DNA of 64,000 nt from a virus (Duplodnaviria; Heunggongvirae; Uroviricota; Caudoviricetes), in the IMG/VR virus record IMGVR_UViG_3300020034_000006, positions 1 through 64,000 of that record. One strand, 5' to 3'. The position numbers were made by a program, and so were the translations under genes. The notes under the pieces are model-generated. The model ran no database searches, had not been told where the DNA came from, and was given only the letters and a program-made list of their open reading frames with translations. This document shows positions 2,347 to 53,366 of this stretch, piece after piece; the first letter of the stretch is position 1, and every line of letters starts with the position of its first letter.

Positions 2347-2891
2347 GGCGCGGCCCACCAATCAATAGCGGTACTACCCGCTTCCCGAACCGACGCGCCG
2401 TCAACGGGACCGTCGTTAGGGTCGACTACTGGCAAGTGATCTACGGTGCGCTCATCGCCAACACCAACACCCGCGGGATGGTGCTCATCGTGCACCTGGT
2501 CGCGAGCCTCGGTAAGTAGATCACTAAGGATCGTACCGAAGTAGTCGTTAGCGTTCCCTCGCGCCTTCTCGTTACGACAGTAGGTCTCACTGTCCCAAAC
2601 GTCTATTCCCCAAAGGGAAGCTCTTACAACGTTGTCGGGTTGTGAAGTGACGACTACCCCAACCTCTCCCCATTGCTTGCCATGCCTCGCACGCATAATC
2701 GCGTCTGTACGCACGGCGGAGCGGATCGCGGGATCGGGGTGGTTTATCTCGCTTGCACTCACGCCATCGTGACGACCGTCAAGATACGAGATGTCTTGAA
2801 CGTCGTCTACTTCAACGGTCACCACGAACCGAGCGATTGTGTGCGTAGTGCTCGTTTCGTACGTGATCGCTACTTCTGTCTCTTCCACCAT
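2343..2891 (-). CDS. Hypothetical protein
   Basis: 182-aa ORF in the leftward operon. 22 nt overlap with the FtsK-like gene. Confidence 0.4.
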   Translation of the reverse strand: MVEETEVAITYETSTTHTIARFVVTVEVDDVQDISYLDGRHDGVSASEINHPDPAIRSAVRTDAIMRARHGKQWGEVGVVVTSQPDNVVRASLWGIDVWDSETYCRNEKARGNANDYFGTILSDLLTEARDQVHDEHHPAGVGVGDERTVDHLPVVDPNDGPVDGASVREAGSTAIDWWAAP

Positions 2892-4066
2892 TGCACTACC
2901 TTTCCGATTTCGGAGTCTGTGACTAGTGCACCTTGTGCACGCGTCAGGGTCGGCCCGCCATCGCTATAGAGTAGATCACCCTTACCGGTAAGGTTCTCCG
3001 CTCCGATGGCATCTAGGATCACTCTGCTATCTGTGTTGCTCGATACTGCGAAAGCGACCTTTGACGGAATGTTCGCTTTCAAGTCTCCGGTAAGAACCTT
3101 GATACTTGGACGTTGGGTAGCTACCACTAGGTGAACACCAGCGGCCCGCCCTAGCTGCGCGATGCGCAGTAGGGCAGGCTCTACGTAAGCCTTAGCTTGC
3201 ATCATGAGGTCTGCAACCTCATCGATGATGACAATTAGGTAAGGCGTTTCCAAACCACTAGCCCTAGCCTCGCTGATGTTGCGAAAGCCCTTGCTCGCTA
3301 AGAACTTGTAACGCTTATCCATTTCGTCCACTACTTCCAAGAGCGAGCCGATAGCCTCACCCCCCTCGGTAACCACCGGTCGCCACAGATGGGGCAAGCC
3401 CTGGTATTGCGCTAGCTCTACCCGCTTCGGATCGATGAGCAGTAGTTGCAAGTCACGCGGGCTTGCTCCCATGAGCAGACTCACGATTAGCGAGTTAAGG
3501 AACGTTGACTTACCCGCTCCCGTCGCGCCAGCAATGACAACGTGCGGTAGCTCAGTGACGTTAGCGACCATCGGCGCACCATCGGCCGTAAGCCCTATCG
3601 CTATGTCCAGTAAGCGCAAGCGCTCGGAAGCTAGGACGCTTCCGAGCGTGACTAGTTGTCGATTGGGTCGCGGTATCTCGATTCCCATGACCGACCTACC
3701 GTCAACGGTGGTCAGGATGCGCGGGTTAGGCGCTCCGAGTATGTATCCGATATCCGCCTTAAGAGCGGTCAACCGTGACACTCGCTCCGAGAGACCTAGG
3801 GCCAGCTCAAACCGAACGACCGAAGGGCCCGCGACGATGTCGACCAGGGCCACGGATACGCCGCGGGAGGACAGGCCAGTAACCAGCCTGTCCGCATACC
3901 CGCCTAGATCGCTCCCTAAGGCTCTCGGAGCGCTTCCGAGGGTATGTAGGGGCGGAAGCTCCCACGCGCGGCCCCTACGACGTCTAGGGCCATCCCTCGC
4001 GGCGTGCGCTCGCCGCGCCTTGACGACCGCGGCGACACCCGCGCCCGCTAGGGCAAATTCAAGCAT
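2870..4066 (-). CDS. FtsK/SpoIIIE-family DNA translocase ATPase
   Basis: Walker A VIAGATGAGKSTFLNSL and Walker B LIVIIDEVADLM. VVATQRPS motif and motor-domain pattern VVRFELALGLSERVSRLTALKADIGY typical of FtsK. Confidence 0.85.
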   Translation of the reverse strand: MLEFALAGAGVAAVVKARRAHAARDGPRRRRGRAWELPPLHTLGSAPRALGSDLGGYADRLVTGLSSRGVSVALVDIVAGPSVVRFELALGLSERVSRLTALKADIGYILGAPNPRILTTVDGRSVMGIEIPRPNRQLVTLGSVLASERLRLLDIAIGLTADGAPMVANVTELPHVVIAGATGAGKSTFLNSLIVSLLMGASPRDLQLLLIDPKRVELAQYQGLPHLWRPVVTEGGEAIGSLLEVVDEMDKRYKFLASKGFRNISEARASGLETPYLIVIIDEVADLMMQAKAYVEPALLRIAQLGRAAGVHLVVATQRPSIKVLTGDLKANIPSKVAFAVSSNTDSRVILDAIGAENLTGKGDLLYSDGGPTLTRAQGALVTDSEIGKVVQWWKRQK

Positions 4067-6662: not shown

Positions 6663-6714
6663 AACTAGGTGTCCGGACAGGAACAGTGTTCCTGTCCAGA
6701 GATCTAGCGACTAG
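6663..6714 (-). promoter_or_regulatory. Conserved intergenic module copy 2: TAACTAGGTGT - palindrome GGACAGGAACA-g-TGTTCCTGTCC - AGATCTAGCGACTAG
   Basis: Shares both flanks with the copies at 1085-1114, 7997-8046 and 8446-8495. Lies immediately upstream (minus sense) of a gene start. Confidence 0.45.
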
Positions 6715-7987: not shown

Positions 7988-7996
7988 TTTCGTCAG

Positions 7997-8046
7997 TAAC
8001 TAGGTGTAAACGCACTCCGGAGAGTGCGCTTAGATCTAGCGACTAG
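7997..8046 (-). promoter_or_regulatory. Conserved intergenic module copy 3 (TAACTAGGTGT - hairpin CGCACTC-cgga-GAGTGCG - AGATCTAGCGACTAG)
   Basis: Near-identical to copy 4, read directly from the sequence. Confidence 0.45.
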
Positions 8047-8130
8047 CGAGCATGTGTGCGATGGGTGGCCACCACGTAGCGTAGATCGCTACGGATACCA
8101 GCAAGCCGATTCCGCATTGCATGCGAGCGC

Positions 8131-8427
8131 TCATCCTAAGTCGTATTCGGGATGACCAGGGAAGCGCATTGAAACCGCTCCAGCGTCTTTCATTGCCCAC
8201 GCGAGAACGTCATAGGTCTCTTCTTCCGTGATCCCGTCGCGGTTGTCGGTAAAGAACCGTCCGGAGTAGTAACGCACGTTGTCGTCGTCCCACAGAGTGA
8301 ATCGCACGCTCTCGCGCTTCACTCCCGCGGGCGGAATCTCTCCGTACTCGTTACCGGACCTGTCCGGTAACCCCTCAATGGGCATTTCTTCCGCTAGATG
8401 GTCCTTGTCGATAACCCAACCGAACAT
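8131..8427 (-). CDS. Hypothetical protein
   Basis: 98-aa ORF with RBS GGAGGA upstream. Confidence 0.45.
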   Translation of the reverse strand: MFGWVIDKDHLAEEMPIEGLPDRSGNEYGEIPPAGVKRESVRFTLWDDDNVRYYSGRFFTDNRDGITEEETYDVLAWAMKDAGAVSMRFPGHPEYDLG

Positions 8428-8445
8428 GTCGTGTCCTCCGTTTAG

Positions 8446-8495
8446 TAACCAGGTGTAAGCGCACTCCAGAGAGTGCGCTTAGATCTAGCGACTAG
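8446..8495 (-). promoter_or_regulatory. Conserved intergenic module copy 4 (TAACCAGGTGT - 10-bp hairpin AAGCGCACTC-caga-GAGTGCGCTT - AGATCTAGCGACTAG)
   Basis: Read directly from the sequence. Upstream of the 8131..8427 start. Confidence 0.45.
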
Positions 8496-8751
8496 CGAAA
8501 GCGTCGATATCGAGCGACCAACTAGCAACGCTCCGACCATCGTGATCTACGGCCGGACGTTCCCCCTCGGACCATCCGCACCATGAGAGTGACTGCGCAA
8601 CATGGTGAACGATCCGAGCGACTTGCTCACGCTCTTCCACAGTAGGAAATTCGGTCTCGATGTCCGGAATATCGATGATGATTCGCACGTGCCTTGCCTC
8701 TTTCAATCGACCAGCGAGCCGCGACGTTCTGACGCGTTGAAGTGAGCGCAT
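8485..8751 (-). CDS. Hypothetical protein
   Basis: 88-aa ORF. First gene to the left of the 900-bp non-coding region. Confidence 0.45.
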   Translation of the reverse strand: MRSLQRVRTSRLAGRLKEARHVRIIIDIPDIETEFPTVEEREQVARIVHHVAQSLSWCGWSEGERPAVDHDGRSVASWSLDIDAFASR

Positions 8752-9523
8752 CGGTCAGACGACGTCCGACCTAGCCTCGCTAGCGCGGCCCGGGTATTCG
8801 GTCCCTGACGTATCGAGCTAGGTACTGGTCGCTCGCGTCGAATGGCGGTCAGGGGTGTTACTGGCCTGACCTACGCATTCCCGTAGACCCTTCGCGCCTC
8901 CGGTTAAGTGCTCCCTACTGCCCGCGTACGGGAAGAGCTGCCGAACCATCATCGGTCGCTAAGTCTGGCCTGCCCAATTTCCGGCTTGGCACTAGCCGTC
9001 ACCCCCTACGTCCCGTTTCGTGCGAGCGGAGCGCTCGCCGCGGGTGGAGTGATTCCCTGCCTATGTGCGGGCCCTTCGCCTCGCCCCCGGGTAGACCGAG
9101 CAAGCGTAGCGATCAGGGTGACTTACGGGACATCCAGAGAGTACCCCCGATGGCGTACCCCTGTGTCTAGAACCTGTGACGATTGGGTTACGAAACCGAG
9201 CGTTTCCCCTAGGTGCGTACTGCCCTAGACGTGGGATGGCCGGAGTACCCTCTAGAGCGTCCCCTAAGCGATTTCGTACGCTGGCGGCCCCTAGTACCCA
9301 TGGCGGAGGCTCGCGGGAGATCTCCGGCCAATCGCCTCTTGTCAAGAGGCTTGACCAGGGGATCTATAACCTGCACGTACGTACAACTACCGCTCATGGT
9401 GGTAGCGCGTCGACACAGAGTGCCGGAAACGTACGCGTGTTCGCATCGCACCTAGGCGAGCGCTTGCTTGGACCCTAGCGCTTGCTTGCAAGGCGAACGT
9501 GCGTTCTGTGACGGATTTCTCAA

Positions 9524-9552
9524 AGTTTCTACTTGACTTCCGCCGCGATCCG
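9524..9552 (+). promoter_or_regulatory. Candidate sigma-A-like promoter TTGACT-N17-TAGACT
   Basis: Hexamers read directly from the sequence with 17-nt spacing. Points rightward into an AT-rich non-coding stretch. Function unknown. Confidence 0.25.
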
Positions 9553-9607
9553 TAGTAGACTGGAGGGTTGGCCCCCTGGGCGAGGGTGGCCGGCGGAGCG
9601 GCGGCCC

Positions 9608-9680
9608 GATATAGGGTCGATATCGGGCGCCTAAATTATATAATATAATATATAATATTATAAGAAATTTCTAGCTAGCC
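9608..9680. other. Palindrome CCCGATAT-N-ATATCGGG followed by a ~45-bp pure A/T tract (TAAATTATATAATATAATATATAATATTATAAGAAATTT)
   Basis: This is an extreme local composition for a ~65% GC genome. Candidate origin/DNA-unwinding element or a strong promoter region. Confidence 0.4.
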
Positions 9681-10217
9681 GCGGAGCCCGGCGAGAGCCG
9701 GCTCGATGGCTTCGACTGCCGGGGCCAGGCCCAGGCGGACGTCGACCTCGACGCAAAGGTAGCCGGCTCGCCTAGATCGCTCGACCATGTCCTTCGTGCC
9801 ACGAGTGGACCACAGGGGCCTGTCCAGGACGGCCATGACGAACAGCGGGTGGTAGCGGTCGAGCATGAGCTGATTGCGCCGTAGACCGGCAGCAGGGCAG
9901 TAATCAGAGCCATTGCCGCGCCGGCGTCGATGGCCAGGGCTACACCAACCAGCCTCGAAGTCGCAGGGAGCCTGCCAACAGGCAGGCTCCGTAATGCAGG
10001 GGATGCGCAGAGCTGCACACGCAGCCTTCACGTAGCCATCTGAGCCGTGAGCGCCACCCTGCACGACATTGAGGCCAGGCCCTAGCACTAGGCGTAGGTG
10101 GCTCATCAAGGCGTTGATGGTGTCGCTCGGCTGGCAATCCCGAGGACCGGTGGTGACTACGGTCAGCTTTTCCAAATTCCCTCCCGGAGAATTCCGAAAA
10201 AACGAAAACACCCCCAT
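9675..10217 (-). CDS. Hypothetical protein (first ~40 codons are AT-rich and probably non-coding; real start likely internal near 10106)
   Basis: 180-aa ORF containing a GGAHGSDGYVKAACAAL motif. The N-terminal codons (ttttcgttttttcggaattct) do not match the genome's codon bias. Confidence 0.4.
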   Translation of the reverse strand: MGVFSFFRNSPGGNLEKLTVVTTGPRDCQPSDTINALMSHLRLVLGPGLNVVQGGAHGSDGYVKAACAALRIPCITEPACWQAPCDFEAGWCSPGHRRRRGNGSDYCPAAGLRRNQLMLDRYHPLFVMAVLDRPLWSTRGTKDMVERSRRAGYLCVEVDVRLGLAPAVEAIEPALAGLRG

Positions 10218-10235
10218 ACGGTTTCTGGGGGCGCG

Positions 10236-10309
10236 GCGACCCCCCTTAGGGGTCTTTTCAAATCCGGCTCGGCAGAATCCCGAAACCCTGGCGACCCCCC
10301 TTAGGGGTC
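10236..10309. repeat. Two direct copies of GCGACCCCCCTTAGGGGTCTT, 51 bp apart, with further copies at about 10541 and 10712
   Basis: Identical 21-mers at 10236-10258 and 10287-10309. The core palindrome CCCCTTAGGGG recurs at 10541-10553 and as a variant at 10710-10728. Confidence 0.5.
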
Positions 10310-12027: not shown

Positions 12028-12577
12028 ATCGAGACTCTACGCCCTGGCTGCGGCGCACACGAGCGATGTAGTCGGACCGTGTCTCTCCGCGGTTCTTGGC
12101 CCGTGACCAGCCCCGATTGTGAGTCGGACAGAAGCCGTCCTTGATCCGGTTCTCCTCCCCGCCTGGCATCCACAGGTTGCAGGCCACGCAGTGGCCCGAG
12201 CCCGGAACCCGGGCCTCCTCCTCAAGGATGCGCTGAGCCTCGCGACGCTTGGCCCTGCCCATGATGTCCTCGTACACCCCGTCGACCCGCGTGAGGCTCA
12301 GGTCGAGGCCGGTGAGGGCCTTGGTGAACGAGTCGTACAGGGTGCCCTTGCGCATCGAGCGAGTGCACGCCACCGTGCCAGTCTGGTCGTTGTAGCCGGG
12401 GTCCTCTGCGGAGTGGTCGTGGCCACCATGAGCCCGGTCAGAGCTGTAGTGACGTCCCCTCAGGGGGGACTGCTGTTCCTTCGCCACACTCAAGGCGGTG
12501 TCTCCACCGTCGATCAGCTTCTTGGCCACCGTGATCAGATGCCGAGCGATGTGCTTCGGCCGGGGTGCTTGTTGCAT
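12011..12577 (-). CDS. Hypothetical protein
   Basis: 188 aa. The CVACNLW...CPTHNRGW spacing could reflect a metal-binding nuclease-like site, but this is not established. Confidence 0.4.
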   Translation of the reverse strand: MQQAPRPKHIARHLITVAKKLIDGGDTALSVAKEQQSPLRGRHYSSDRAHGGHDHSAEDPGYNDQTGTVACTRSMRKGTLYDSFTKALTGLDLSLTRVDGVYEDIMGRAKRREAQRILEEEARVPGSGHCVACNLWMPGGEENRIKDGFCPTHNRGWSRAKNRGETRSDYIARVRRSQGVESRYDIEA

Positions 12578-13570: not shown

Positions 13571-13815
13571 AGCTCGTCCTGTTCGTCTACCTCAAGGAGA
13601 TCTTGAGGCGTCTCATCGAAGTCCGTGAGACCACGCAGCTCCATGACGTAGCCGACGATCTGCGCTTCCATCACTCGCAGCTCTTTCGACGCAGCGTGGA
13701 GCGTCTTCAATACCTCAACGGCTTGCTCGTCGGACGGGCGTCCTCCGACCAGCCAAGCGACGTTGTCGGCGACAGCACTGCCAGAGCCGAGCCAACCTGT
13801 GGGTACCCAGCTCAT
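13567..13815 (-). CDS. Hypothetical protein
   Basis: ORF 13567..13932. The internal start MSWVPTGW at 13815 gives an ATGA overlap with the stop at 13812. Confidence 0.35.
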   Translation of the reverse strand: MSWVPTGWLGSGSAVADNVAWLVGGRPSDEQAVEVLKTLHAASKELRVMEAQIVGYVMELRGLTDFDETPQDLLEVDEQDEL

Positions 13816-14105
13816 GCGCTGCAATCCTTCATCACTCGTTGCTTCGCACGGCATATGTCGGCCTGGCCCAAGTAGAAGTGCTTGAGACACACGGGGAACT
13901 GGGCCTCGGACAGCTCTCGCGCTCGCCACCAATCCTCAGTGCCGTCGCTGCTTGCGCCGAGGTCTACCCAGCAGGTGTGAATGCCATCCTTGTGATGATG
14001 CACGATGACGTCACCGTCGGCACCGAGCTTGTATCCGGCTTCGCTCATGCACATGCGAAGCTTCTCCGCCATCGCCTCTGCCTCTTCGAGGGTGGCGTAG
14101 GTCAT
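13812..14105 (-). CDS. Hypothetical protein
   Basis: 97-aa ORF with a 4-nt overlap with the primase gene. Confidence 0.4.
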   Translation of the reverse strand: MTYATLEEAEAMAEKLRMCMSEAGYKLGADGDVIVHHHKDGIHTCWVDLGASSDGTEDWWRARELSEAQFPVCLKHFYLGQADICRAKQRVMKDCSA

Positions 14106-15874
14106 GCGTAGCTCCTGCGCAGCTCGAAGCGAATAGGGGAGTCCGACTCCTCACCCATTGCGTTCTGCACGCCGATGTTGAAATCGATTTGCCACTGGCT
14201 CCCGCCCCACTGGCGGGAGCCGAACTCGACATCGATGAAGAAGTCCCCGGTGTTGAGGTTCGCCGGTTCGCGTTCAGCGGTGAACATCCACGAGTCGACC
14301 CACTCACCCGAGCCCGCCATCGTGATGCGGTTCAGGCCCCTCGACTCCGCGCCCTTCTTGAAGTGGTTGACGATGAGCAGGTTGCTGCCGTGCTCGATGA
14401 ACGGAGCGGCCACTGCGGTGAGCAGTGCGCCCTCCTCGTGGATGTTGGCCGAGTTCGTCTCGGACCCGTGGTAGGCGTAGAACGGGTCAATGACCGTGAG
14501 CACCGGGTCTAGGTGTTCGAGGGCGTTCTCGATCGTTCCCTTGAACGCCGGGCTCAACAGCGGTGCTGTCTGGAACACCGAGTGGATAGGCACGTCACGG
14601 ATGTCACGGATGTCAACCGACTCGGCGATACGAGGCATGCGCCTCGTCCACGGAATGCGCCCACCCTCGCCGATGAACATCACCACGTTGCCTTGCTTCT
14701 CCACCGGGAACTGCCCGAGGAAGGGACTACCCGTCGCCACCGCCAGGGCGAGGTACTGGGACAGGTAGGTCTTCAAGGTTTTCTTCTCGCCTGCGATTTG
14801 ACCATAGGTCGGGATGCACACAACGTTGCGCACAAGCCAGTTCAACTTGAGGTCAGACGCCATCAGCTCTTGCATCGTCCACATGCGCAACCGTGGCTGC
14901 TCCATCGCCAGCACCTTCTCGACGTCATCCTCGTTCCCGCCGGCATCGAGGATGATCTGCTCGATGAAGGTTCGATCCTTGTCGCGCTCTTCGAGCCCGA
15001 CGCTGACGTTGGCCCTCACTCTTGTGCGTGCGCCTTCGAGCGCACGCCGGTACTCCCGCGTCGCCTTCACTGCGTCCGCCCGATCCCTCACAGCGCTCGT
15101 GAAGGCCATTTCGAGGCTCATCAGGGCCAGGGTCGCCCCGGCGTAGCCCAGCAGCTCGTGGCTGCACAGAGCGGCCACTGCGAGAGTCATGGAAGTGTGT
15201 CGGTCACCACGAGGGTCGAAGCTGTTGAAGGCCTCGGTCACCCGGGGGTGCCAGGCGTCCATGGGCTCAAGGCGAGCCTCAGGCGAAGCGTACGGATCAT
15301 CGAGCTTGGCCTCGGCCTCCGCTACCGCTGCGGTCCTGAGGCGTTGCATCACCCAGTCCGGCGCTTGGATCATTGCCGAGAAGTCATGGCCGTAGGCGTA
15401 GTAGTAGCCATCATTGTCTGGGGCCACCACATAGCCGGCGTCGCTGCGGACGTTGACTCCTTTGCAGAGATCATGGTTGCCGACGTGCTCCGAGCGATCG
15501 GGCTTGTTGAGGTAGATGTGAGAGCCACCGGATGGCGTGCGCACCATCGCCGTCCGCCCATCCCACAGTCCGCTCTTTGAGGAAGTAGCAGCGAAGCAAA
15601 CGGCTTCGAGGTTGTTGGGGCCGCTCACACCGCCCTTGACGTCAACATCGAGGACGATGTACCCAAGGCTCCCGGGCACCAGGCCAACCATCATCGTGTC
15701 CTCGTGCTCGAACCACCAGAGGTCGCGGGTCTCGCTTGAGGCGTCCTCGAACCCTCTCTTGACCAGGTGCGTGACCGGGCTCTTGTCGCCACGCAGGGGC
15801 AGCACCTTGCCTCCCATGACCATGAGGGACAGCGCTAGCTCACGAGGGATCATCGGGGTGGAACTCCCATGCAA
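14102..15874 (-). CDS. Bifunctional DNA primase/polymerase (PrimPol-like) domain protein
   Basis: The N-terminal region carries the acidic beta-strand motif GYIVLDVDVKGG and the surrounding pattern typical of the PrimPol N-terminal domain. 590 aa with a long C-terminal domain. No Walker A motif was recognised. Confidence 0.65.
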   Translation of the reverse strand: MHGSSTPMIPRELALSLMVMGGKVLPLRGDKSPVTHLVKRGFEDASSETRDLWWFEHEDTMMVGLVPGSLGYIVLDVDVKGGVSGPNNLEAVCFAATSSKSGLWDGRTAMVRTPSGGSHIYLNKPDRSEHVGNHDLCKGVNVRSDAGYVVAPDNDGYYYAYGHDFSAMIQAPDWVMQRLRTAAVAEAEAKLDDPYASPEARLEPMDAWHPRVTEAFNSFDPRGDRHTSMTLAVAALCSHELLGYAGATLALMSLEMAFTSAVRDRADAVKATREYRRALEGARTRVRANVSVGLEERDKDRTFIEQIILDAGGNEDDVEKVLAMEQPRLRMWTMQELMASDLKLNWLVRNVVCIPTYGQIAGEKKTLKTYLSQYLALAVATGSPFLGQFPVEKQGNVVMFIGEGGRIPWTRRMPRIAESVDIRDIRDVPIHSVFQTAPLLSPAFKGTIENALEHLDPVLTVIDPFYAYHGSETNSANIHEEGALLTAVAAPFIEHGSNLLIVNHFKKGAESRGLNRITMAGSGEWVDSWMFTAEREPANLNTGDFFIDVEFGSRQWGGSQWQIDFNIGVQNAMGEESDSPIRFELRRSYA

Positions 15875-17682: not shown

Positions 17683-17887
17683 CAGCGGGTCGAGCCGATG
17701 TCATGTGCTTCACGCTGCTGTCGGAGAGCGACACCACTTCGGTGGGGTCTGGGCCCCACTGCTCGATCACGGCTGGCACGTTCGTGTCCCGCGTCCTGAT
17801 GACAATCGCCGGGCAAACCACGTCGTTGCCGGGGCCGTTGTCGATCTTCGAGCGGTAGATGACGATGCGTCCGATGGTGGGCTTCAT
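17549..17887 (-). CDS. Hypothetical protein
   Basis: ORF 17549..18028. The internal start MKPTIGRIV at 17887 gives an ATGA overlap with the SPFH gene stop. Confidence 0.4.
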   Translation of the reverse strand: MKPTIGRIVIYRSKIDNGPGNDVVCPAIVIRTRDTNVPAVIEQWGPDPTEVVSLSDSSVKHMTSARPAGVLNELPDDDTVDLAVFGLGKTYREYAISKGDQPGQWQWQEQGG

Positions 17888-18891
17888 CACTCGCCGGCCG
17901 GGATCGGTAGCTGAAGGATCGAACTCGGGTCGTCCGGTACGACCACGACATTGCCGTTCTCGCTCATCTTGCTGAGTGCATCGATCCACTTGCTGATGAG
18001 CACCTGCGCGTTGAGGCGGTTCTGACACTTGTCGTTCGGAACCGGGATGACCTCGACCACCTCGACGTCCTCGCCGGCCACCTCCTGGGTAGCGGTGCGA
18101 GTGGTGGCACCACAGCGCTGGATCTGATCGGCGTCGGCCTGGGCCTGGGCCTCGGTCCTCGTGGTGTTGGCCTCGATGCGAGCCCGGTTCAGGTCAGCCC
18201 GAGCTTCCTCGACCAGCGCTTGGCTCTGGTTCACTCGGTCGAGCGATTCCTTCACCGAGGGCGGGAGGTTGATGTCGCCCACCTCGACCCGTTCGACGTC
18301 GACCTCGGTCAGCTCGGCGTCCAGGCGACGGGTCAGCTCTTCTTGCAGGTTGTCGCGCTGGGTGCTGATCTCGAAGGCGTTGTAGCCCGAGGCGACCGTG
18401 GCGGTGACGTCACGCAGCGCCAGGCGGAGGCGGTTGTCTTCGAGCTTGGTCTGATCGCGATGCTCGTTGTCGAGCGCAGCGATCTCCTTCTTGCCCCCAG
18501 GGATGTTGTAGACGAGCGCCACGTTGACCGAGGCGTCGTTGCCGAGGCTCGGCACGGGCACGGCAGGCCCATCGAGATCCTCGCCGTCGCCGGCCAGCTC
18601 GATGCGCTGAAGGCGGGTGTTCCAGGTCTCTCGCTTGTTCCACGGAGCGGTCCAACCGAAGCCCGGAGTGGTGTCGACATCGAGCACATCGCCGCCGGCT
18701 CCGCGGATGAGCACAGCCTCGCCGGTCGACTGGGTGTAGGAGCCGGATATGCCGATGAGCATCACGGCGAAGAACAAGATGATGAAGCCACCGAGGCGCA
18801 CCATCGTCTTGTCTCTGCTGGGTACACCAGGGGCAATCACACATACAGCCCCGATGAGGGCGACGAAGATTGCAAGTACGAACCAGAACAC
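17887..18891 (-). CDS. SPFH/band-7 (prohibitin/HflC-like) membrane protein
   Basis: N-terminal TM helix, then an SPFH-like core. Long Glu/Arg/Ala-rich coiled coil (EARADLNRARIEANTTRTEAQAQADADQIQR) and a C-terminal tail. Confidence 0.6.
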   Translation of the reverse strand: MFWFVLAIFVALIGAVCVIAPGVPSRDKTMVRLGGFIILFFAVMLIGISGSYTQSTGEAVLIRGAGGDVLDVDTTPGFGWTAPWNKRETWNTRLQRIELAGDGEDLDGPAVPVPSLGNDASVNVALVYNIPGGKKEIAALDNEHRDQTKLEDNRLRLALRDVTATVASGYNAFEISTQRDNLQEELTRRLDAELTEVDVERVEVGDINLPPSVKESLDRVNQSQALVEEARADLNRARIEANTTRTEAQAQADADQIQRCGATTRTATQEVAGEDVEVVEVIPVPNDKCQNRLNAQVLISKWIDALSKMSENGNVVVVPDDPSSILQLPIPAGE

Positions 18892-18896
18892 TTAGT

Positions 18897-19214
18897 TCAT
18901 TCTCCTCTTTCGTTGTAGAACGCCCTGACTAGGCGCTCCGCTTCAACCCGGTCCTCGATGGTGAGAATCGGGATGGCGCGGTCTTGTTGGAGGATTCGTT
19001 CGATCAGCCGCGTTGATTGCTGGGAGTGGCTGTAGAGAGCCAACAGCTCGGTTGGCCGAACTAGATCGGCACCGATCTTCACGAGGGTCTGACGCCTCCA
19101 TCTAGACCTGAACACCGACAACCACACAGATGCCAACCCACCAAGCACCAGGCAGGCGATAACCAGCTTCAACGTCATTCGCCGTACCCATCGTCTGTGG
19201 TGAGGTCGGCCCAC
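18897..19214 (-). CDS. Small single-TM membrane protein, possible partner of the SPFH protein
   Basis: 105 aa with TM LVIACLVLGGLASVWLSVF. Stops 6 nt before the SPFH start. Confidence 0.4.
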   Translation of the reverse strand: MGRPHHRRWVRRMTLKLVIACLVLGGLASVWLSVFRSRWRRQTLVKIGADLVRPTELLALYSHSQQSTRLIERILQQDRAIPILTIEDRVEAERLVRAFYNERGE

Positions 19215-27665: not shown

Positions 27666-27738
27666 GCGTTTTGGGGCCCTCGTAGCTCAGGGGACAGAGC
27701 GGTCGCCTCCTAAGCGACAGGCCGCAGGTTCGAGTCCT
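27666..27738 (+). tRNA. tRNA-Arg (anticodon CCU, reads AGG)
   Basis: Hand-folded cloverleaf. Acceptor GCCCTCG/CGAGGGC, D-arm GCTC-AGGGGACA-GAGC, anticodon stem GTCGC/GCGAC with loop CTCCTAA, T-arm GCAGG-TTCGAGT-CCTGC, discriminator G. No encoded CCA. Confidence 0.8.
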
Positions 27739-27782
27739 GCCGAGGGCGCTGTGACAATTGTCTTGCCTCTCGGCGGACGGCT

Positions 27783-28779: not shown

Positions 28780-28853
28780 TGTGATGTAGCTCAGTTGGAT
28801 AGAGCACTCGCCTTCTAAGCGAGAAGTCACGGGTTCGACTCCCGTCATCTTCA
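28780..28853 (+). tRNA. tRNA-Arg (anticodon UCU, reads AGA)
   Basis: Canonical D-arm TAGCTCAGTTGGATAGAGCA, anticodon stem CTCGC/GCGAG with loop CTTCTAA, T-arm ACGGG-TTCGACT-CCCGT. The acceptor stem shows two mismatches (positions 1-72 and 3-70) as read, hence the reduced confidence. Confidence 0.55.
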
Positions 28854-44058: not shown

Positions 44059-45099
44059 TCATTTGTGTTGCTCCTTGACTGCATCAGCCCATGCCTCGAT
44101 CCATCGCATGGCGTTGCCTTCGATGGTGTTCAACTTCGCTATCGCTCTGCCGGCGTCGGCCATCTCGTCGCGCAGAAAGCGATCGCACACGAGAGACCAC
44201 AGGTGGGTCTCCCATTCCTCAGGAGTCGAAGCGAGCAGGCCAACTCCAAGGTCGTGGAACTTCTTGTAATCCGCCGTTGGCGATGCCACCCAGGGAACGC
44301 CCACAGCGGAGTACTCCAACGGCCTCAGTCGAGACTTCGACGCGTTGAACTCCGACAGCAGGAGTGGAGCAATGCCAATGCCGAGCTTGCTCAACTCGGT
44401 GGGCCAGTAGGTGAGCGGGACCCCGTCGGTGGCGAAGGGTTCTTCTTTCAGCTTCAACACCCGAGCTAAGCCACCCTTCGGCCCAACAACCTTGAAGGTG
44501 ACGCCTTGAGTGACGATGTTCGCTATCGCGTGTCCGAGGACTTCGAGATCGCCAGGGTGGGTCCTGACCGCTCCGCCCCAGCCGACCACTCCACTGTCCC
44601 GGTGCGGGATCTTGAGATAGGACCGGGGGACGCAGTTGGGGAGGATGCGGAAGCGCCCGTGGGGCGCATAGCGCTTGGCGAGTGCTTCGGTAGTGACAGT
44701 GACGAGGCTGGCTTGAGCGCAGGCCTTGACGGCGAACTCGTTGTACTCCCGAGCCCAGCAGAACGCTGCGTTGTCCACGTGGACGCAGGACAGGTCGTCG
44801 TCCATGTCCACCACGACAGCGATGCCCCGAGCCCGGAGCTTGGGCACTGCGTCCACCGTGGCTTGCGTGGCCGGGCGCTGGATGACCACGACGTCAGCGT
44901 CTTTGACGGTGAGGTAGTTGATGTAGTTGTCCATCCGCCAGCCGACGTAGCGATCATCGGCGACTTCGACCTGGGCCTCACCGGTAGCGCCTGCGGCGCG
45001 ACCGGGCCAGATCAGGCGGTAGAACCCGCACGGTCCACTGTCACCCGGCGAGATGAAGACCTTCACAGCACCATCGGGGCGGGGATCGGAACGATCCAC
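44059..45099 (-). CDS. GT-B fold glycosyltransferase (GT4/GT1-like)
   Basis: C-terminal LRPLEYSAVGVPWVASPTADY resembles the E-x7-E / G-x-P-V-V-A motif of GT4 enzymes. 346 aa. Confidence 0.55.
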   Translation of the reverse strand: MDRSDPRPDGAVKVFISPGDSGPCGFYRLIWPGRAAGATGEAQVEVADDRYVGWRMDNYINYLTVKDADVVVIQRPATQATVDAVPKLRARGIAVVVDMDDDLSCVHVDNAAFCWAREYNEFAVKACAQASLVTVTTEALAKRYAPHGRFRILPNCVPRSYLKIPHRDSGVVGWGGAVRTHPGDLEVLGHAIANIVTQGVTFKVVGPKGGLARVLKLKEEPFATDGVPLTYWPTELSKLGIGIAPLLLSEFNASKSRLRPLEYSAVGVPWVASPTADYKKFHDLGVGLLASTPEEWETHLWSLVCDRFLRDEMADAGRAIAKLNTIEGNAMRWIEAWADAVKEQHK

Positions 45100-46343
45100 C
45101 GCCCCTTGAAGTCAGGGTGGTTCCTGATGATCGCGGGTGCGTAGTTCCAAGCCAGCACGAGGATGTCATCGACCCCGCTGAGGTCTTCTCGCGGAGGGAT
45201 GATCTTGATTCCCGTGCCAGGGACGAACCGGCCCTGCTTGGCAGGAGTCGAGTCGATGATCGAGGCGAGGTCGTAGCTGTCGAGCCCGCAGTAGTTCAGG
45301 AGCGTTGTTGCCTTGGCTGGTGCTCCATAGCCGATGGTCGTGCCGCCCTCCGGCCCCGTGTACAGCAGCTCGACCAGGCGATCGCGGATGCGCTCGATAC
45401 GCCCCTGGAAGCCCCTGTAAACGCCTGGCTGACACAGCCAGGTCTCCTTGGCCACCACGGCGTCCTGTGCCCTCTGGTTGGGTCCTAGGGGCCGCTTGGT
45501 GGCAGTGACCCGAAGGGAGCCGCCCTGGCGGTCGGTCAGCTCGACCCGAGCGACGTTCAGGCCCCATTGAGCCAGGGCGCTGCGCAGGCTCGTGAGCGAG
45601 AAGAAGTTGCGGTGCTCGTGGTAGACGAGATCGAACGCGTTGTTGACCAAGAGGTCTGGGAGGTACTGCACCTCGATGAACGCAGCGCCGTCGTCGGCCA
45701 GGAGATGGGCAATCCCTCGAACGACCTCGCTGACCGACTCGACATGAGCGAGGACGTGGTTCGCCACGATGACGCCAGCAGGGCCAAGCTGCTCCCGGAT
45801 GTCGTGAGCCACGTCCATGTTGAACGGCTCTTCAGTGACGTCAAGGCCTCGCTCGCGTGCCACTGCCACCGGGCCCGAGGCCGGGTCTACTCCGACCGCC
45901 TTGCAGCCGGCCTTGGCAAAGTGGCGGAGCATGTCGCCGTCGTTGCAACCGATCTCGACCGTCAGCCGCTTCGCTTCAGGCTTGTGGTAGTCGAGGATGA
46001 AGCCGGCGTAGCGCTCGTGGTAGTCAGACAGCGGCGCCGAGGCCGAGCTGTAGAAGGAGTAGCCGGTGCCGAACAGCGTCTCGTGGTCTACGACCTCAAG
46101 GAGCTGAACGAGCCAGCATCCGGTGCAGACAGCGACTTGCAACGGGTAGCGGGGGCTGACCTCGCCGTGGGTTGACGTGTACGCATCAGCGATTGGCGAC
46201 AACCCCAGATCGAGGAACATCTCAAGGTCGTCGTAACCACAGGCGGCACAGGTGGTGCGCTTCATCCGTTGAACCCCAATCTCGATGCGATGGCTTGGAC
46301 TGTCCCCCTCAGGACTGCGTCGAAGACGTAGGGCGGCGTCCAC
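45063..46343 (-). CDS. SAM-dependent sugar C-methyltransferase-like (zinc-finger + MTase + C-methyltransferase C-terminal architecture)
   Basis: N-terminal CAACGYDD...CTGCW Cys4. Motif I VEIGCNDGDML. The three-domain layout matches TylCIII/NovU-type deoxysugar C-methyltransferases. Confidence 0.65.
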   Translation of the reverse strand: MDAALRLRRSPEGDSPSHRIEIGVQRMKRTTCAACGYDDLEMFLDLGLSPIADAYTSTHGEVSPRYPLQVAVCTGCWLVQLLEVVDHETLFGTGYSFYSSASAPLSDYHERYAGFILDYHKPEAKRLTVEIGCNDGDMLRHFAKAGCKAVGVDPASGPVAVARERGLDVTEEPFNMDVAHDIREQLGPAGVIVANHVLAHVESVSEVVRGIAHLLADDGAAFIEVQYLPDLLVNNAFDLVYHEHRNFFSLTSLRSALAQWGLNVARVELTDRQGGSLRVTATKRPLGPNQRAQDAVVAKETWLCQPGVYRGFQGRIERIRDRLVELLYTGPEGGTTIGYGAPAKATTLLNYCGLDSYDLASIIDSTPAKQGRFVPGTGIKIIPPREDLSGVDDILVLAWNYAPAIIRNHPDFKGRWIVPIPAPMVL

Positions 46344-50954: not shown

Positions 50955-51222
50955 CGGCTTCCTTCTTGTGAGGTTCGAGTTCGGTCCGGGTGACAGTCAC
51001 TTCGCTGCCGAAGCGAGAATGGAACTCGCTCAAGCGGCCGGCGACTAGCGCCTTCATGCAGGTGCCACAGAGCAAGATCTGTTCTCGATAGGGGTCACGT
51101 TGAGTGCCCTGCTGCCCCCCGACCGGACAGGAGAAGATCTCGCCAAATGCCATGCAGTTAGTGCAGAGGCCTCTCACTAGTGCCACTCCTCTGTCGGTCG
51201 TCGTAGTGCGCATATTGCTCAA
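50938..51222 (-). CDS. Hypothetical zinc-ribbon protein
   Basis: 94 aa with CTNCMAFGEIFSCP...CGTC. Confidence 0.35.
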   Translation of the reverse strand: MSNMRTTTTDRGVALVRGLCTNCMAFGEIFSCPVGGQQGTQRDPYREQILLCGTCMKALVAGRLSEFHSRFGSEVTVTRTELEPHKKEADGRVT

Positions 51223-52081
51223 GGTCTCCGCCGTAGGTCATCAACGTGAAGCAATGGAACGTGGCGTGGGCGAGATGGTGCAGGCCGCTCTGATCATCGA
51301 AGTCATGCCCAGCCCAGAAAGCGTTGACGTGCCGCATGAGGGCATCGTGCGAGAGATGCCACGAGTAGCCCCTGCGCCAGTTGTCGCGGTCGTACTTGTC
51401 AGCACCAAAGCCGTAGACCCGGGCCACCTCTGCCAAAGCGGCCACAGGGATCATCGAGTACTGCTCGGGCTTCGAGCCCTTCTGTCCGCCGGTTGGCGAG
51501 GTCTGGCGGACCTCGCCACCGATGTGTGAATCAGCGGTATACGCACTTCGATGCATCACGAGGTCAACGAACTCGGTCCAGGTCGACACCCGAGGCGTCC
51601 ACTCGAACTCAGCGTTCCAAGGCCTAGTCATCAACACGCACGGCACACCCGACTCAACAACGTCGTTAGCGTTGTCGATGTTGTCCTCGATGCAGATATC
51701 GACCGGGTAGCCCGCCTTGTCCTCGCTGAAGGTCAACGTGTCATGAGGAACGTCGTTCGCCGCCAGCCAGCCAATGGTGCTCGTCTGGGCGGCTGGGCGA
51801 GTCCGGTGGGTGATGATATGAATCGAGTGATCAGCGTCCTTGAGGCTCTGCAAGGCGGCGATCGCACCTTCGTACGCCTGCCCCTGGTGGAACAGGCCAG
51901 CGGCTTCTGCCTCCAACATCGACTCCATGAACTCGGCCTGGCTGATGCCCCAGGACTGCCACAGCTCCCACATCAAAGGCTCGGGCATCGACTCGAAGGG
52001 GATGCCCCTAGAGACGCGGTAGTTGCGAAGAGCGGCAACGAAGTTGTAGACGCAGCCATCGAGGTCTATGCCGATTCGCAT
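51158..52081 (-). CDS. HAD-superfamily 5'(3')-deoxyribonucleotidase-like domain fused to a C-terminal domain of unknown function
   Basis: Start MRIGIDLDGCVYNF at 52081 (HAD motif I DxDG). C-terminal segment YGFGADKYDRDNWRRGYSWH...HHLAHATFHCF. Confidence 0.5.
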   Translation of the reverse strand: MRIGIDLDGCVYNFVAALRNYRVSRGIPFESMPEPLMWELWQSWGISQAEFMESMLEAEAAGLFHQGQAYEGAIAALQSLKDADHSIHIITHRTRPAAQTSTIGWLAANDVPHDTLTFSEDKAGYPVDICIEDNIDNANDVVESGVPCVLMTRPWNAEFEWTPRVSTWTEFVDLVMHRSAYTADSHIGGEVRQTSPTGGQKGSKPEQYSMIPVAALAEVARVYGFGADKYDRDNWRRGYSWHLSHDALMRHVNAFWAGHDFDDQSGLHHLAHATFHCFTLMTYGGDLEQYAHYDDRQRSGTSERPLH

Positions 52082-52266
52082 CACGTCTCCTCGCCTAGAT
52101 CGCAGGTCGGACAGGCTCGAAAGCCCATGTTGAGAATCCAGAAGGTCTTGCTGCACCAGCCACATCGCTTGATGTACTTCGGCGGACTCTCGCGGAATGC
52201 CTTGGGGTGCTTGAAGAGCCAGGAGACCGGCGGCAGAGCGCTGGATGGATCGAGTTGTCTCGGCAC
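52081..52266 (-). CDS. Hypothetical small Cys-rich protein
   Basis: 61 aa with CGWCSKTF...CPTC. Confidence 0.3.
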   Translation of the reverse strand: MPRQLDPSSALPPVSWLFKHPKAFRESPPKYIKRCGWCSKTFWILNMGFRACPTCDLGEET

Positions 52267-53366
52267 TACCAGCCCTCTGCGCCGCGGTCGATGCGGCCGT
52301 CGGGCAGCATGGGTGCGCAGAAGATGGGTGTATGGCCGAAGGGTCCGTAGTCGGCCGTCTCAAGCCAGAGCGCTTGCTTCGGTGCCTCGATGCCGAAAGA
52401 GCGGCTATAGGCGTACTCGTCGGTTCCCTTGAGCGAGCCGTTCAGGACGAACTCGCCTCCGGTGCGGTAGGTGTGCCAGTGACCGACAAGCAGGATGTCG
52501 TAAACCTCGCCGGCAGCGCCCTCGCGCTGCCGGCGTCGGAGGTCCCCTCGAACGATCGGTGTCCAGGCCCCAGCAATGCCACCACCGCCACCAAACCCGA
52601 GGTTGCCATGCGTCAGGAGATAGCGAGTGTTTTGCACCTGTACCCGAGCGTCCGTCTCCTCCGGAATCTGCCAAGTGACACCGGGGGCCGAGCCGGCCCT
52701 TTGTGTCATATGAGCAAGCAGCCAGTCGTAGTTGTCACGGGCACGGAGCTTCGCTCGCTCTTTGCCCGTGCGACGACCGTGATTGCCGCAAACGCTGACG
52801 ATGTGTACGTTGCCGTAGAACTCCGCGAGCATGTCGAAGCCGGCGGCCAATTGCTCAGACCAGTAGAGGCACGTCCCGAGGATCGTGTCCTCGTTCGTCT
52901 GCTGAAGTTCTTCATGGATGTCGCCAGAGATCGAGTCGCCAGCCATGAAGATCACGGCGCCCTGATACTCGTGACCACCGAAGTGGTCACGAGGCAGAGA
53001 GATGACCTTGTCGAAGAATCGGCGTAGCCGCTGTGTGCCGATCTCACGGTTGTAGGCATTGATGCCATTGACCTCGCGAGGGTTGACGACCTCATCGAAG
53101 TGCATGTCCGACAACATGGCGCAGACGGTGACGTCCCTAGTCCGCAGCGCCGGCTTCTCGGTGATCCAGGTGGGAGGCTTCGGGCTCGCTGTGAAGAACG
53201 CTTCGTTGAAGCTGACGTGTCGCTCTAGCTCGGTCAGCTTCTTCGAGGCCAGACGGAAGGCAGCGCTCTTCGCTGCGAGCTTGGCCTTCTGCTGTTCAAG
53301 CTGAAGCTCAAGTTCGGCAACACGTTGCCCGTATTGCATGTCTGCGATCTCATCAGCTACACCCAC
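52266..53366 (-). CDS. Calcineurin-like metallophosphoesterase
   Basis: MPE motifs D-x-H (LSDMHFD), GD (FMAGDS), GNH (VCGNHGRR) and GHxH (VGHWHTYR). Confidence 0.75.
   Translation of the reverse strand: MGVADEIADMQYGQRVAELELQLEQQKAKLAAKSAAFRLASKKLTELERHVSFNEAFFTASPKPPTWITEKPALRTRDVTVCAMLSDMHFDEVVNPREVNGINAYNREIGTQRLRRFFDKVISLPRDHFGGHEYQGAVIFMAGDSISGDIHEELQQTNEDTILGTCLYWSEQLAAGFDMLAEFYGNVHIVSVCGNHGRRTGKERAKLRARDNYDWLLAHMTQRAGSAPGVTWQIPEETDARVQVQNTRYLLTHGNLGFGGGGGIAGAWTPIVRGDLRRRQREGAAGEVYDILLVGHWHTYRTGGEFVLNGSLKGTDEYAYSRSFGIEAPKQALWLETADYGPFGHTPIFCAPMLPDGRIDRGAEGW

Follow-up and report, generated by a model that had tools for sequence, protein, structure and literature searches.

The gap and its relatives

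The stretch analyzed here, called the window throughout, is the first 64,000 nucleotides of IMG/VR virus record IMGVR_UViG_3300020034_000006. Judging by its tape-measure protein, serine integrase, and tail proteins, it belongs to a temperate siphophage. All genes from position 1 to about 23 kb lie on the minus strand, and two of them are separated by a noncoding element of about 985 nt that runs, in minus-strand sense, from 9674 to 8689. A YAcAr/SLOG-like gene precedes the element and a small open reading frame (ORF) follows it. The replication genes lie to the right of the gap and include Band_7 and exonuclease genes, as well as a Prim-Pol fused to an AAA_25 (RepA-like) domain that lies about 4.4 kb upstream of the element. 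We consider it likely that the main content of the element is a conserved structured RNA of the minus strand.

The noncoding character of the element is apparent from several kinds of evidence. Codon-position GC gives no signal at 8800–9500, the ORFs within the gap have no match in Pfam or PHROG, and the homologues of the element share no common reading frame. Insertions and deletions between homologues are not multiples of three, while the spacing of conserved anchors is nearly constant. A protein-coding or decayed gene was rejected because of the missing shared frame, the nontriplet indels, and the lack of protein homologues. In favor of a decayed gene, the relative L034 has a stop-free antisense frame of 252 codons. 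This frame was also rejected, since its translation is rich in Arg, Pro, and Gly, and its weak similarity shifts frame between relatives.

A preliminary description of the locus, made from the sequence alone, had reported no convincing ORF on either strand between 8752 and 9670, which holds, and the decayed gene it had named as a refuting outcome in related genomes does not appear there. The gap is real, with a left edge that was drawn too short. The ATG at 8751 falls within a conserved hairpin (Pb) of the element, and an in-frame GTG stands behind a ribosome-binding site, AAAGAGG; the gap therefore probably extends left to about 8689. The GTG at 8688 is probably the start of the downstream gene, an arrangement that matches L030. 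In all six full-length genomes the next gene starts about 20–50 nt past the closing stem Pa, behind a purine-rich site. Gene callers have set spurious minus-strand genes on the element in L036 (14832–15594) and L030 (16680–16937), and ATG 8751 is probably a wrong start of the same making.

The element appears to belong to a family of uncultured actinobacterial siphophages. No DNA similarity to the window was found among 50,697 phage records, one tail protein had no match, and an exact-sequence lookup of the window's own flanking proteins found none on record. The cultured relatives of the PrimPol, exonuclease, and FtsK proteins are distant, at about 45% identity or less (Streptomyces, Mycobacterium, and other phages). 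Two routes led to closer relatives. Homologues of the YAcAr protein gave L001, an 89-kb syntenic contig identical to IMG/VR UViG_3300021976_000008, and the short contig L002, both of which have a gene-free stretch of 840–1000 nt after the YAcAr-like gene. Homologues of PrimPol (97–48% identity among full-length hits) gave L030, L034/L035, L036, L037, L040, and L041. With nhmmer the element was found in L030, L001, L002, L034, and L036 (E values from 5e-64 to 1.5e-9), in gene sense each time, and as a partial copy in L041. The window together with L001, L002, L030, L034, and L036 makes up the six full-length genomes; the seventh, L037, has a reduced version in a 660-nt gap that nhmmer missed.

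Both the position and the sequence of the element are conserved in these six genomes. It directly follows a YAcAr-like gene in all six, with 39–65% amino-acid identity in that gene, and the downstream genes that were compared (window, L001, and L002) are unrelated to each other. With a constant gene on one side and unrelated genes on the other, the element marks a mosaic boundary, one of the options offered in the preliminary description. Nucleotide identity to the window is 60–67% for the 650-nt core region, compared with 53–61% for the YAcAr coding sequence and 69–76% for the PrimPol coding sequence. More distant phages with a YAcAr gene (L023–L027) have no gap after it. Other scans added little. 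A 21-mer from hairpin P2, run against viral, metagenome, and genome collections, had its sole real match in the L001 phage, with 13 other loci matching a palindromic word by chance. Scans of IMG/VR with GTAAC..GTTCTAGAC and with the junction pattern gave nothing new, and a PrimPol profile scan of IMG/VR returned the L001 phage again and no other.

Two of the remaining contigs show variations. In L041, whose PrimPol is 53% identical, a short core of about 160 nt (17790–17950) directly follows a stop codon and lacks an A/T tract. Some 850 nt further downstream is another core-like copy (18640–18760), and about five tandem copies of a GCACAC-rich repeat of about 60 nt occupy 18800–19120. In L040, the sequence after the YAcAr-like gene (13804–14154) is G/T-rich, with several GTTGAC repeats, three AAAATTTTCC repeats, and CCCAGGGAAAC. 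The last of these is common to L040 and L036, and the L040 contig stops there.

Conserved pairing in the 3' module

At least seven helices in the 3' module of about 650 nt, called module B (Table 1), change sequence yet stay paired. Between its anchors the sequences differ from genome to genome, with hairpins at equivalent places whose tips are often unequal in length but always paired. The distance from GTAAC to TTCTAGAC is 20 nt in six of six genomes. The two arms of helix P1 are exactly 58 nt apart in the same six, and pairing is held in L036 through a swap of G-C to C-G. Hairpin P2 takes A-to-G changes as G-U pairs in L030, L034, and, by eye, L041. The base of H5 reads CCCU/AGGG, CUCC/GGAG, GACC/GGUC, GACC/GGUU, and GAUC/GGUC in five genomes. 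The outer stem of H9 reads GCUCU/GGAGC, GUCCU/GGGAC, GUCGU/ACGAC, and GUCGU/GCGAC, around an inner stem of variable length.

Among the compared sequences, H7' is the clearest case of changed sequence with kept pairing. Its arms are CGGCU/AGCCG, CGGUC/GACCG, CGGCC/GGCC, and CGGGU/AUCCG, and in L037, by eye, CCGGU/ACCGG. The nearly invariant GGCAGGCCAGAC (GGCAGGCC) that follows could pair with the AGUGCC loop of H7' as a pseudoknot (AGUGCC/GGCA), a prediction on which covariation is uninformative because both partners are invariant. At the 3' end of the module is a three-way junction with only two hairpins, in which an 8-bp stem would be stacked on a stem of 4–5 bp with a 7-nt loop of the YUCG type. 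A purine and then CU directly follow it.

The junction was scored in an unedited MAFFT alignment of six sequences. Pairing held in 95.6% of cells, and both sides had changed in 8 of 19 pairs; neither the pairing nor the covariation score of the real alignment was reached in any of 500 shuffles, and slid controls stayed at or below 47%. A covariance model built from the six junctions found the unseen seventh copy in L037 at 42.6 bits (E = 4e-10), and this copy shows new compensatory changes in Pa. Scoring the same 19 pairs over seven sequences gave 94.7% paired, with 9 pairs and 24 cells changed on both sides and again no match in 500 shuffles. When P1, H5, H7', and H9 were scored jointly, 98.9% of cells were paired and 9 of 19 pairs were changed on both sides (0 of 500 shuffles). 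Across all helix tests the slid controls reached at most 52%. RNAalifold independently recovers P1, P2, the H9 stems, and the junction, and over the whole core it returns a messy long-range fold. A strict column-wise search for helices yielded little, since the MAFFT alignment it ran on misaligns hairpins that vary in length. The compensatory base-pair changes looked for in a structured noncoding RNA are present.

The pattern of G-U pairs fits only the minus, gene-sense strand. The tested helices hold 15 G-U cells compared with 2 identified C-A cells. Read on the plus strand, these G-U pairs would turn into A-C mismatches. The minus strand is also the transcribed strand of every flanking gene. 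In the window, the fold z-score of the whole gap is −4.8 for the minus strand and −1.6 for the plus strand. A noncoding RNA had been among the options in the preliminary description. The covarying helices, G-U pairs, and gene orientation support an RNA source here, but its strand is the opposite of the one implied there and its start is not the same.

Several points weigh against a structured RNA. The arms of P1, H5, H7', and H9 were picked by hand and hand-aligned at fixed or nearly fixed anchor offsets, so the joint test leans toward structure, and the seven sequences are few and all related by descent. P2 is broken in L036. Fold z-scores of the core are inconsistent over the six homologues (−3.2, −0.4, −3.3, +0.9, −1.5, and −0.4), and the antisense strand sometimes folds lower than the sense strand. 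No consistent helices were found in 9192–9296 or inside the 58-nt core, and part of the conservation there may act at the level of DNA. Covariation by itself would look alike for RNA and for single-stranded DNA of the same polarity, and the DNA stem-loop at the pRN1 origin, a direct precedent, is likewise reported to keep its structure despite changes in sequence (PMC4234260). RNA is favored over single-stranded DNA because the structure covers about 650 nt, is nested and branched, has the sense of the genes, and ends about 20–50 nt before a ribosome-binding site in each of the genomes. The RNA model also leaves the A/T tract of 32–70 nt and the repeat arrays unexplained. In addition, any promoter here is putative, and the intrinsic terminator scan of 8300–10300 was empty, making a free RNA with a defined 3' end a conjecture.

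Some of these observations would suit a different arrangement, a purely DNA-level regulatory hub in which a promoter and operator arrays mark the boundary of two early modules and any RNA lacks a function of its own. The invariant TTGACA in the core and the exact 58-nt spacing of patches with no consistent helices between them could be read this way, as could the duplication of core-like motifs in L041 and the excess of promoter-like hexamers. The repeated motifs are also rich in CTAG, as are the 110 nt before GTAACnnnATCGnnAnnnGTTCTAGAC (9192–9296). The 985-nt element holds 12 copies of CTAG where about 7 are expected from trinucleotide content, which is about 12 per kb versus 2.3 per kb in the whole window. 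As a separate observation, CTAG density is 4–11 per kb across most of the left 10 kb of the window and 0–4 per kb elsewhere. TTGACA was rejected as a −35 element because, by eye, no −10-like hexamer stands at a usable distance from it in any of the seven sequences. Compensatory changes on both sides of seven helices are not expected for protein-binding sites. Hairpin tips also vary in length yet always pair. A hub of this sort seems improbable to us.

Table 1. Positions in the window of the element's features and of genes named in the text
Feature	Position	Strand	Description
YAcAr/SLOG-like gene, 180 aa	9675–10217	minus	PF10686 matched in homologues; directly upstream of element
Module A	9670–9366	minus	A/T tract, CCTATAT(C/G)G box, short repeats that differ by lineage
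A/T tract	9632–9663; 9632–9670	minus	32 nt, pure; 39 nt with one G
Interrupted inverted repeat, 23 nt	9605–9627	minus	8-nt arms, 7-nt spacer; CCCGATAT-CGACCCT-ATATCGGG
Variable repeat region	9366–9604	minus	Least conserved part of element
GAACnnnnGTWCG 13-mers (n = 2)	9494–9506, 9430–9442	minus	
12-nt direct repeat	9459–9470, 9477–9488	minus	
Module B	9360–8716	minus	About 650 nt; conserved anchors at near-constant spacing
Core	9297–9360	minus	P1 enclosing P2 and conserved CGATT, CAG, and CGCGAG patches
Helix P1	9356–9360 with 9297–9302	minus	One bulged U
Hairpin P2	9341–9355	minus	Includes invariant TTGACA
Conserved block GTAACnnnATCGnnAnnnGTTCTAGAC	9165–9191	minus	
Conserved CCGTAAG	9122–9128	minus	Ahead of H5
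Hairpin H5	9072–9118	minus	Base CCCU/AGGG; distal part length-variable
Conserved CGCACATAGGCAGGGAA	9053–9069	minus	Ahead of H6
Long hairpin H6	9000–9051	minus	Sequence differs per genome; judged by eye only
Hairpin H7'	8994–8998 with 8982–8986	minus	CGGCU/AGCCG; invariant AGUGCC loop
Nearly invariant GGCAGGCCAGAC	8963–8974	minus	After H7'
H9	8910–8938	minus	Outer and inner stems around conserved CAGUAG internal loop
Conserved GCGAAGGGTCT	8885–8895	minus	Between H9 and H10
Hairpin H10	8848–8870	minus	
3' three-way junction	8716–8791	minus	Pa closing hairpins Pb and Pc
Pa	8784–8791 with 8716–8723	minus	8-bp closing stem
Pb	Base 8776–8781 with 8741–8746	minus	Distal part length-variable
Pc	8735–8737 with 8724–8726	minus	Abuts 3' strand of Pa
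Ribosome-binding site AAAGAGG	8697–8703	minus	Ahead of GTG
Probable true start GTG of downstream gene	8686–8688	minus	In frame; arrangement matches L030
Small ORF downstream of gap	Stop end at 8485	minus	Listed as 88 aa from ATG 8751
Prim-Pol + AAA_25 (RepA-like) fused protein, 590 aa	14102–15874		Right of gap, replication genes
FtsK-like gene	2870–4066		Left, lower-GC module, with small unannotated ORFs
Two tRNA-Arg genes (anticodons CCT, TCT)	27676–27749, 28780–28853	plus	18 kb from element

The A/T tract and the question of an origin

The 5' part of the element, module A, is of a different kind. L037 and L041 hold the core and/or the junction without module A and without any A/T tract, so that the tract, the box, and the repeats that differ by lineage can be set apart as a module of their own. 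Apart from this tract, no A/T run in the window reaches 10 nt and no 40-nt stretch reaches 75% A+T. By an arithmetic estimate, a 32-nt run at 62% GC has a chance expectation of about 2e-9 per 64 kb. An A/T-rich tract of 35–70 nt is found at the same place in L001, L002, L030, L034, and L036. The preliminary description had singled out this tract, correctly as exceptional, with a length of 45 bp that proved too long. It is a candidate promoter region or DNA-unwinding element.

Next to the tract is an inverted repeat that had been described as a palindrome of 26 bp at 9608–9634 and is shorter and interrupted. It includes the box CCTATATCG (9607–9615) and two ATATCG direct repeats 11 nt apart. 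The sequence GATATCG-N0-2-CCCTATATCG is found in four of the six genomes (window, L001, L002, and L030) and can form a hairpin; CCTATAT(C/G)G is found in all six, about 15–30 nt past the A/T tract. The box was rejected as a −10 element because the final T is absent. A scan of IMG/VR with GATATCG..CCCTATATCG gave, besides the L001 phage, only chance or unrelated sites. One high-GC viral contig unrelated to the window (L018/L022; IMG/VR 3300005614_000046 and 3300026078_000279) has a cluster of GATATC-containing repeats, GCCGATATCCGAGATATTGGGGATATCTGCGATATCGCC...GATATCGCCCTATATCG; it surfaced only through a common 17-mer box.

The repeats that follow are the least constant feature. This region is 200–270 nt long and poorly conserved among genomes. 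Partly palindromic 13-mers (GWACnnnnGYKCG) number 6–8 in L001, L002, and L030, where they are spaced by 15–19 nt and largely confined to the element. The window has two and L034 and L036 have none, with L036 carrying other short repeats. The 13-mers show no covariation as hairpins.

Promoter-like sequences are concentrated in the A/T tract. TATAAT-like hexamers stop about 7 nt ahead of the conserved 5' hairpin (9627–9605), and sigma-70-like hexamers match within the tract on both strands in the window and L030. Promoter-like hexamer matches number 4 compared with 0.7 expected, an excess that comes mainly from the tract itself. Of the two pairs proposed in the preliminary description, TTGACT-N17-TAGACT is present at 9533–9561 rather than at 9524–9552 and is absent from relatives, which leaves a plus-strand promoter there without conservation. 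The second, TTGTCA...TATAAC, is present at 9339–9370 with a 20-nt spacer and is the reverse complement of a conserved hairpin. L001 alone has, by eye, a weak hairpin and T10 just ahead of its A/T tract. A hairpin with the A/T tract as a plus-strand terminator was rejected after the terminator scan, which found none.

The main rival to a structured RNA is a replication origin for the PrimPol and the RepA-like helicase, which could also coexist with an RNA. The A/T tract would serve as the unwinding element; the box, ATATCG repeats, and 13-mer arrays would serve as initiator sites; and some or all of the hairpins would be priming signals in single-stranded DNA. We regard this as possible but doubtful. 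A uniquely meltable tract kept in six genomes is what an unwinding element calls for, the conserved box lies beside it, and in three genomes a regularly spaced array follows whose repeats differ between lineages in the manner of iterons. The Prim-Pol and AAA_25 gene is also close by.

There are precedents for such an arrangement in origins served by primases of the archaeo-eukaryotic type with RepA-type or SF3 helicases. The oriV of RSF1010 combines a RepC-bound origin with two hairpins of 40 nt that act as priming signals for the RepB' primase and the RepA helicase (PMC8567376). In pRN1, a stem-loop of about 100 nt downstream of the PrimPol-helicase gene forms the origin; its structure is conserved, its sequence is not, and pRN1-like origin features have been noted in phages too (PMC4234260). 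The phage resembles these IncQ and pRN1 systems in encoding a Prim-Pol fused to an AAA_25 (RepA-like) domain. Its element likewise has an A/T-rich tract, short repeats, and hairpins conserved more in structure than in sequence, and, as in pRN1, lies downstream of replication genes (PMC4234260). It differs in that its repeats are not conserved across the family and some relatives lack the A/T tract. Its structured part of about 650 nt is branched, is on one strand, and has no opposed pair of priming hairpins.

A comparison can also be drawn with phage origins of the lambda type, in which iterons with internal dyad symmetry lie beside an A/T-rich region. L001, L002, and L030 have tandem, partly palindromic repeats by an A/T-rich tract of 30–60 bp. 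Here the element is not inside an initiator gene, the repeat spacing is about 16–17 bp, and the repeats are nearly absent from the window.

Other observations speak against an origin. The window has only two 13-mers and L034 and L036 have none, and L037 and L041 keep the core and/or junction with no A/T tract. A structure of 650 nt confined to one strand, its helices nested and branched and including 15 G-U cells, far exceeds any known priming signal. No initiator gene was identified. The cumulative GC skew, put forward in the preliminary description as a check, has its minimum near 41–42 kb, away from the element, and gives no signal at the gap, where it is uninformative. The tract and box are conserved in six genomes and the 13-mers follow in three, and an origin here is a candidate reading. 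Module A may be a strong promoter region, a replication origin, or both.

The wider setting of the gap was also compared with the preliminary description, whose observations are partly confirmed and whose interpretation is partly supported. The compositional boundary it placed here is seen as a modest step (GC of about 0.55–0.62 on the left versus 0.60–0.66 on the right), and the FtsK-like gene, which it had assigned to the high-GC right side, lies on the low-GC left. The repeat family it ascribed to the left module is probably a 55-nt intergenic repeat with two full copies that are 95% identical (7995–8049 and 8444–8498) and shorter copies at 6700–6714 and about 494–508, as well as at 1845–1871 in L002. 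Situated between minus-strand genes of the left module, the repeat contains a 10-bp hairpin (AAGCGCACTC/GAGTGCGCTT) and AGATCTAGCGACTAG; its CTAGTCGCTAGATCTA motif is also found in L002, after the 80-aa gene with which that contig ends. The repeat might serve between genes as a terminator or as a hairpin for processing. Elsewhere in the window are an NT5C and dATP/dGTP diphosphohydrolase fusion (51158–52363) and, among the tail genes, a glycosyltransferase and C-methyltransferase pair (44059–46343), which hint at modification of the nucleotide pool or of virion sugars.

Relation to known RNAs and proposed role

No catalogued RNA family matches the element. At the gathering threshold, Rfam models match nothing in the whole window except the two tRNAs, and at E values up to 10 there is no match in 8400–9900 of the window or 16900–17640 of L030. 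L037 has sub-threshold matches only, including a tRNA-like one beside the element. This is a degenerate tRNA-like element (12311–12373) directly after the junction and before the next gene, whose T-loop reads GGTTCGAATCC and whose end reads ...CCACCA. Its RF00005 score of 19.6 bits falls short of the gathering score of 29, and ARAGORN reports nothing there. Neither ARAGORN nor RF00005 reports the junction itself as a tRNA in the window or its relatives. Membership in GOLLD, ROOL, OLE, or other large RNA families of Rfam was rejected for lack of a covariance-model match, as were a group I or II intron and a tRNA array for lack of an Rfam match. A hammerhead-type junction was rejected since the strands are too short and the conserved core is absent.

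The element does have some features that recall known RNAs. Collinear motifs resembling the specificity domain of RNase P can be picked out by eye (AUAGGCAGGG, CCAGUGC, a CCCGCG...CGCGGG hairpin, CAGUAGGG, and GCGAAGGGU). A bacterial RNase P RNA was rejected because there is no Rfam match and there are no conserved P4 strands; by eye, L030 and L034 are the only genomes with a GGAAGUCC-like string, and its order with respect to AUAGGCAGGG is wrong. The size and phage location recall GOLLD and ROOL, large RNAs of phages and prophages that are often near tRNAs; in GOLLD the 3' part is conserved and the 5' part variable (PMC12286853). Like these, the element is carried by a phage, extends over several hundred nucleotides, and has many helices and conserved junctions, and its 3' part is better conserved than its variable 5' part. 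An association with tRNA might be seen in the tRNA-like topology of the junction and in the degenerate tRNA-like element that follows it in L037. The differences are that the element does not match the Rfam models of GOLLD and ROOL, that its motifs are not theirs, and that the tRNA genes of the window are 18 kb away. It is known from seven contigs only, and it is embedded in an early operon with a start codon directly after it, which may make it a leader and not a free RNA. Taken together, a divergent member of a known family (GOLLD, ROOL, RNase P RNA, a group I or II intron, or a tRNA array) or the decayed gene considered above is a very improbable source of the element.

The junction is presumably comparable to tRNA-like signals for 3'-end processing, such as mascRNA downstream of MALAT1 and tRNA punctuation. 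It too is compact and marks the 3' edge of a long structured RNA, and its closing stem, which would stack on a short hairpin with a loop of 7 nt for 12–13 bp in total, is followed by a purine. It differs in lacking a D arm and an equivalent of the conserved A58 in the loop, and in not matching the tRNA model.

We rate the element as a new RNA family of the GOLLD/ROOL-like kind that is physically joined to an origin-like module of A/T tract and repeats. For the explanation as a whole, mechanism included, we lean toward a large structured minus-strand RNA as the main product of the element, either a new phage RNA or a leader. Transcription would enter from the A/T tract or start in it. The RNA would fold as it is transcribed into a multidomain particle, possibly with the AGUGCC/GGCA pseudoknot, and the tRNA-like junction would act as a processing or insulating signal that parts the structured RNA from the downstream mRNA. 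The RNA could then work as a free particle, or it could act in cis on the next module, through its stability, translation, or read-through.

A more ambitious proposal, which we consider quite unlikely, joins the two modules in one function. In this case a new class of phage RNA of about 650–950 nt would work with the adjacent A/T unwinding element. The RNA would be made next to the origin, be released at the tRNA-like 3' junction, and act as a structured particle. It might associate with itself through its many palindromic CUAG motifs, or it might instead serve as an organizer or primer for the PrimPol-helicase. If true, this would be a structured RNA tied to replication initiation in actinobacterial phages.

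Large structured noncoding RNAs are, to our knowledge, rare in bacteria and phages. GOLLD and ROOL form RNA-only cages, and their function is still unknown. An unrelated new family in actinobacterial phages would be an independent example of a large structured phage RNA, one whose position is fixed, with the replication genes on one side and a variable gene module on the other, and whose 3' end is a tRNA-like junction. We know of no origin that has been mapped in actinobacterial phages of this type. For phages whose replication relies on a PrimPol-helicase, the A/T tract and its repeats would offer a concrete candidate for the origin.

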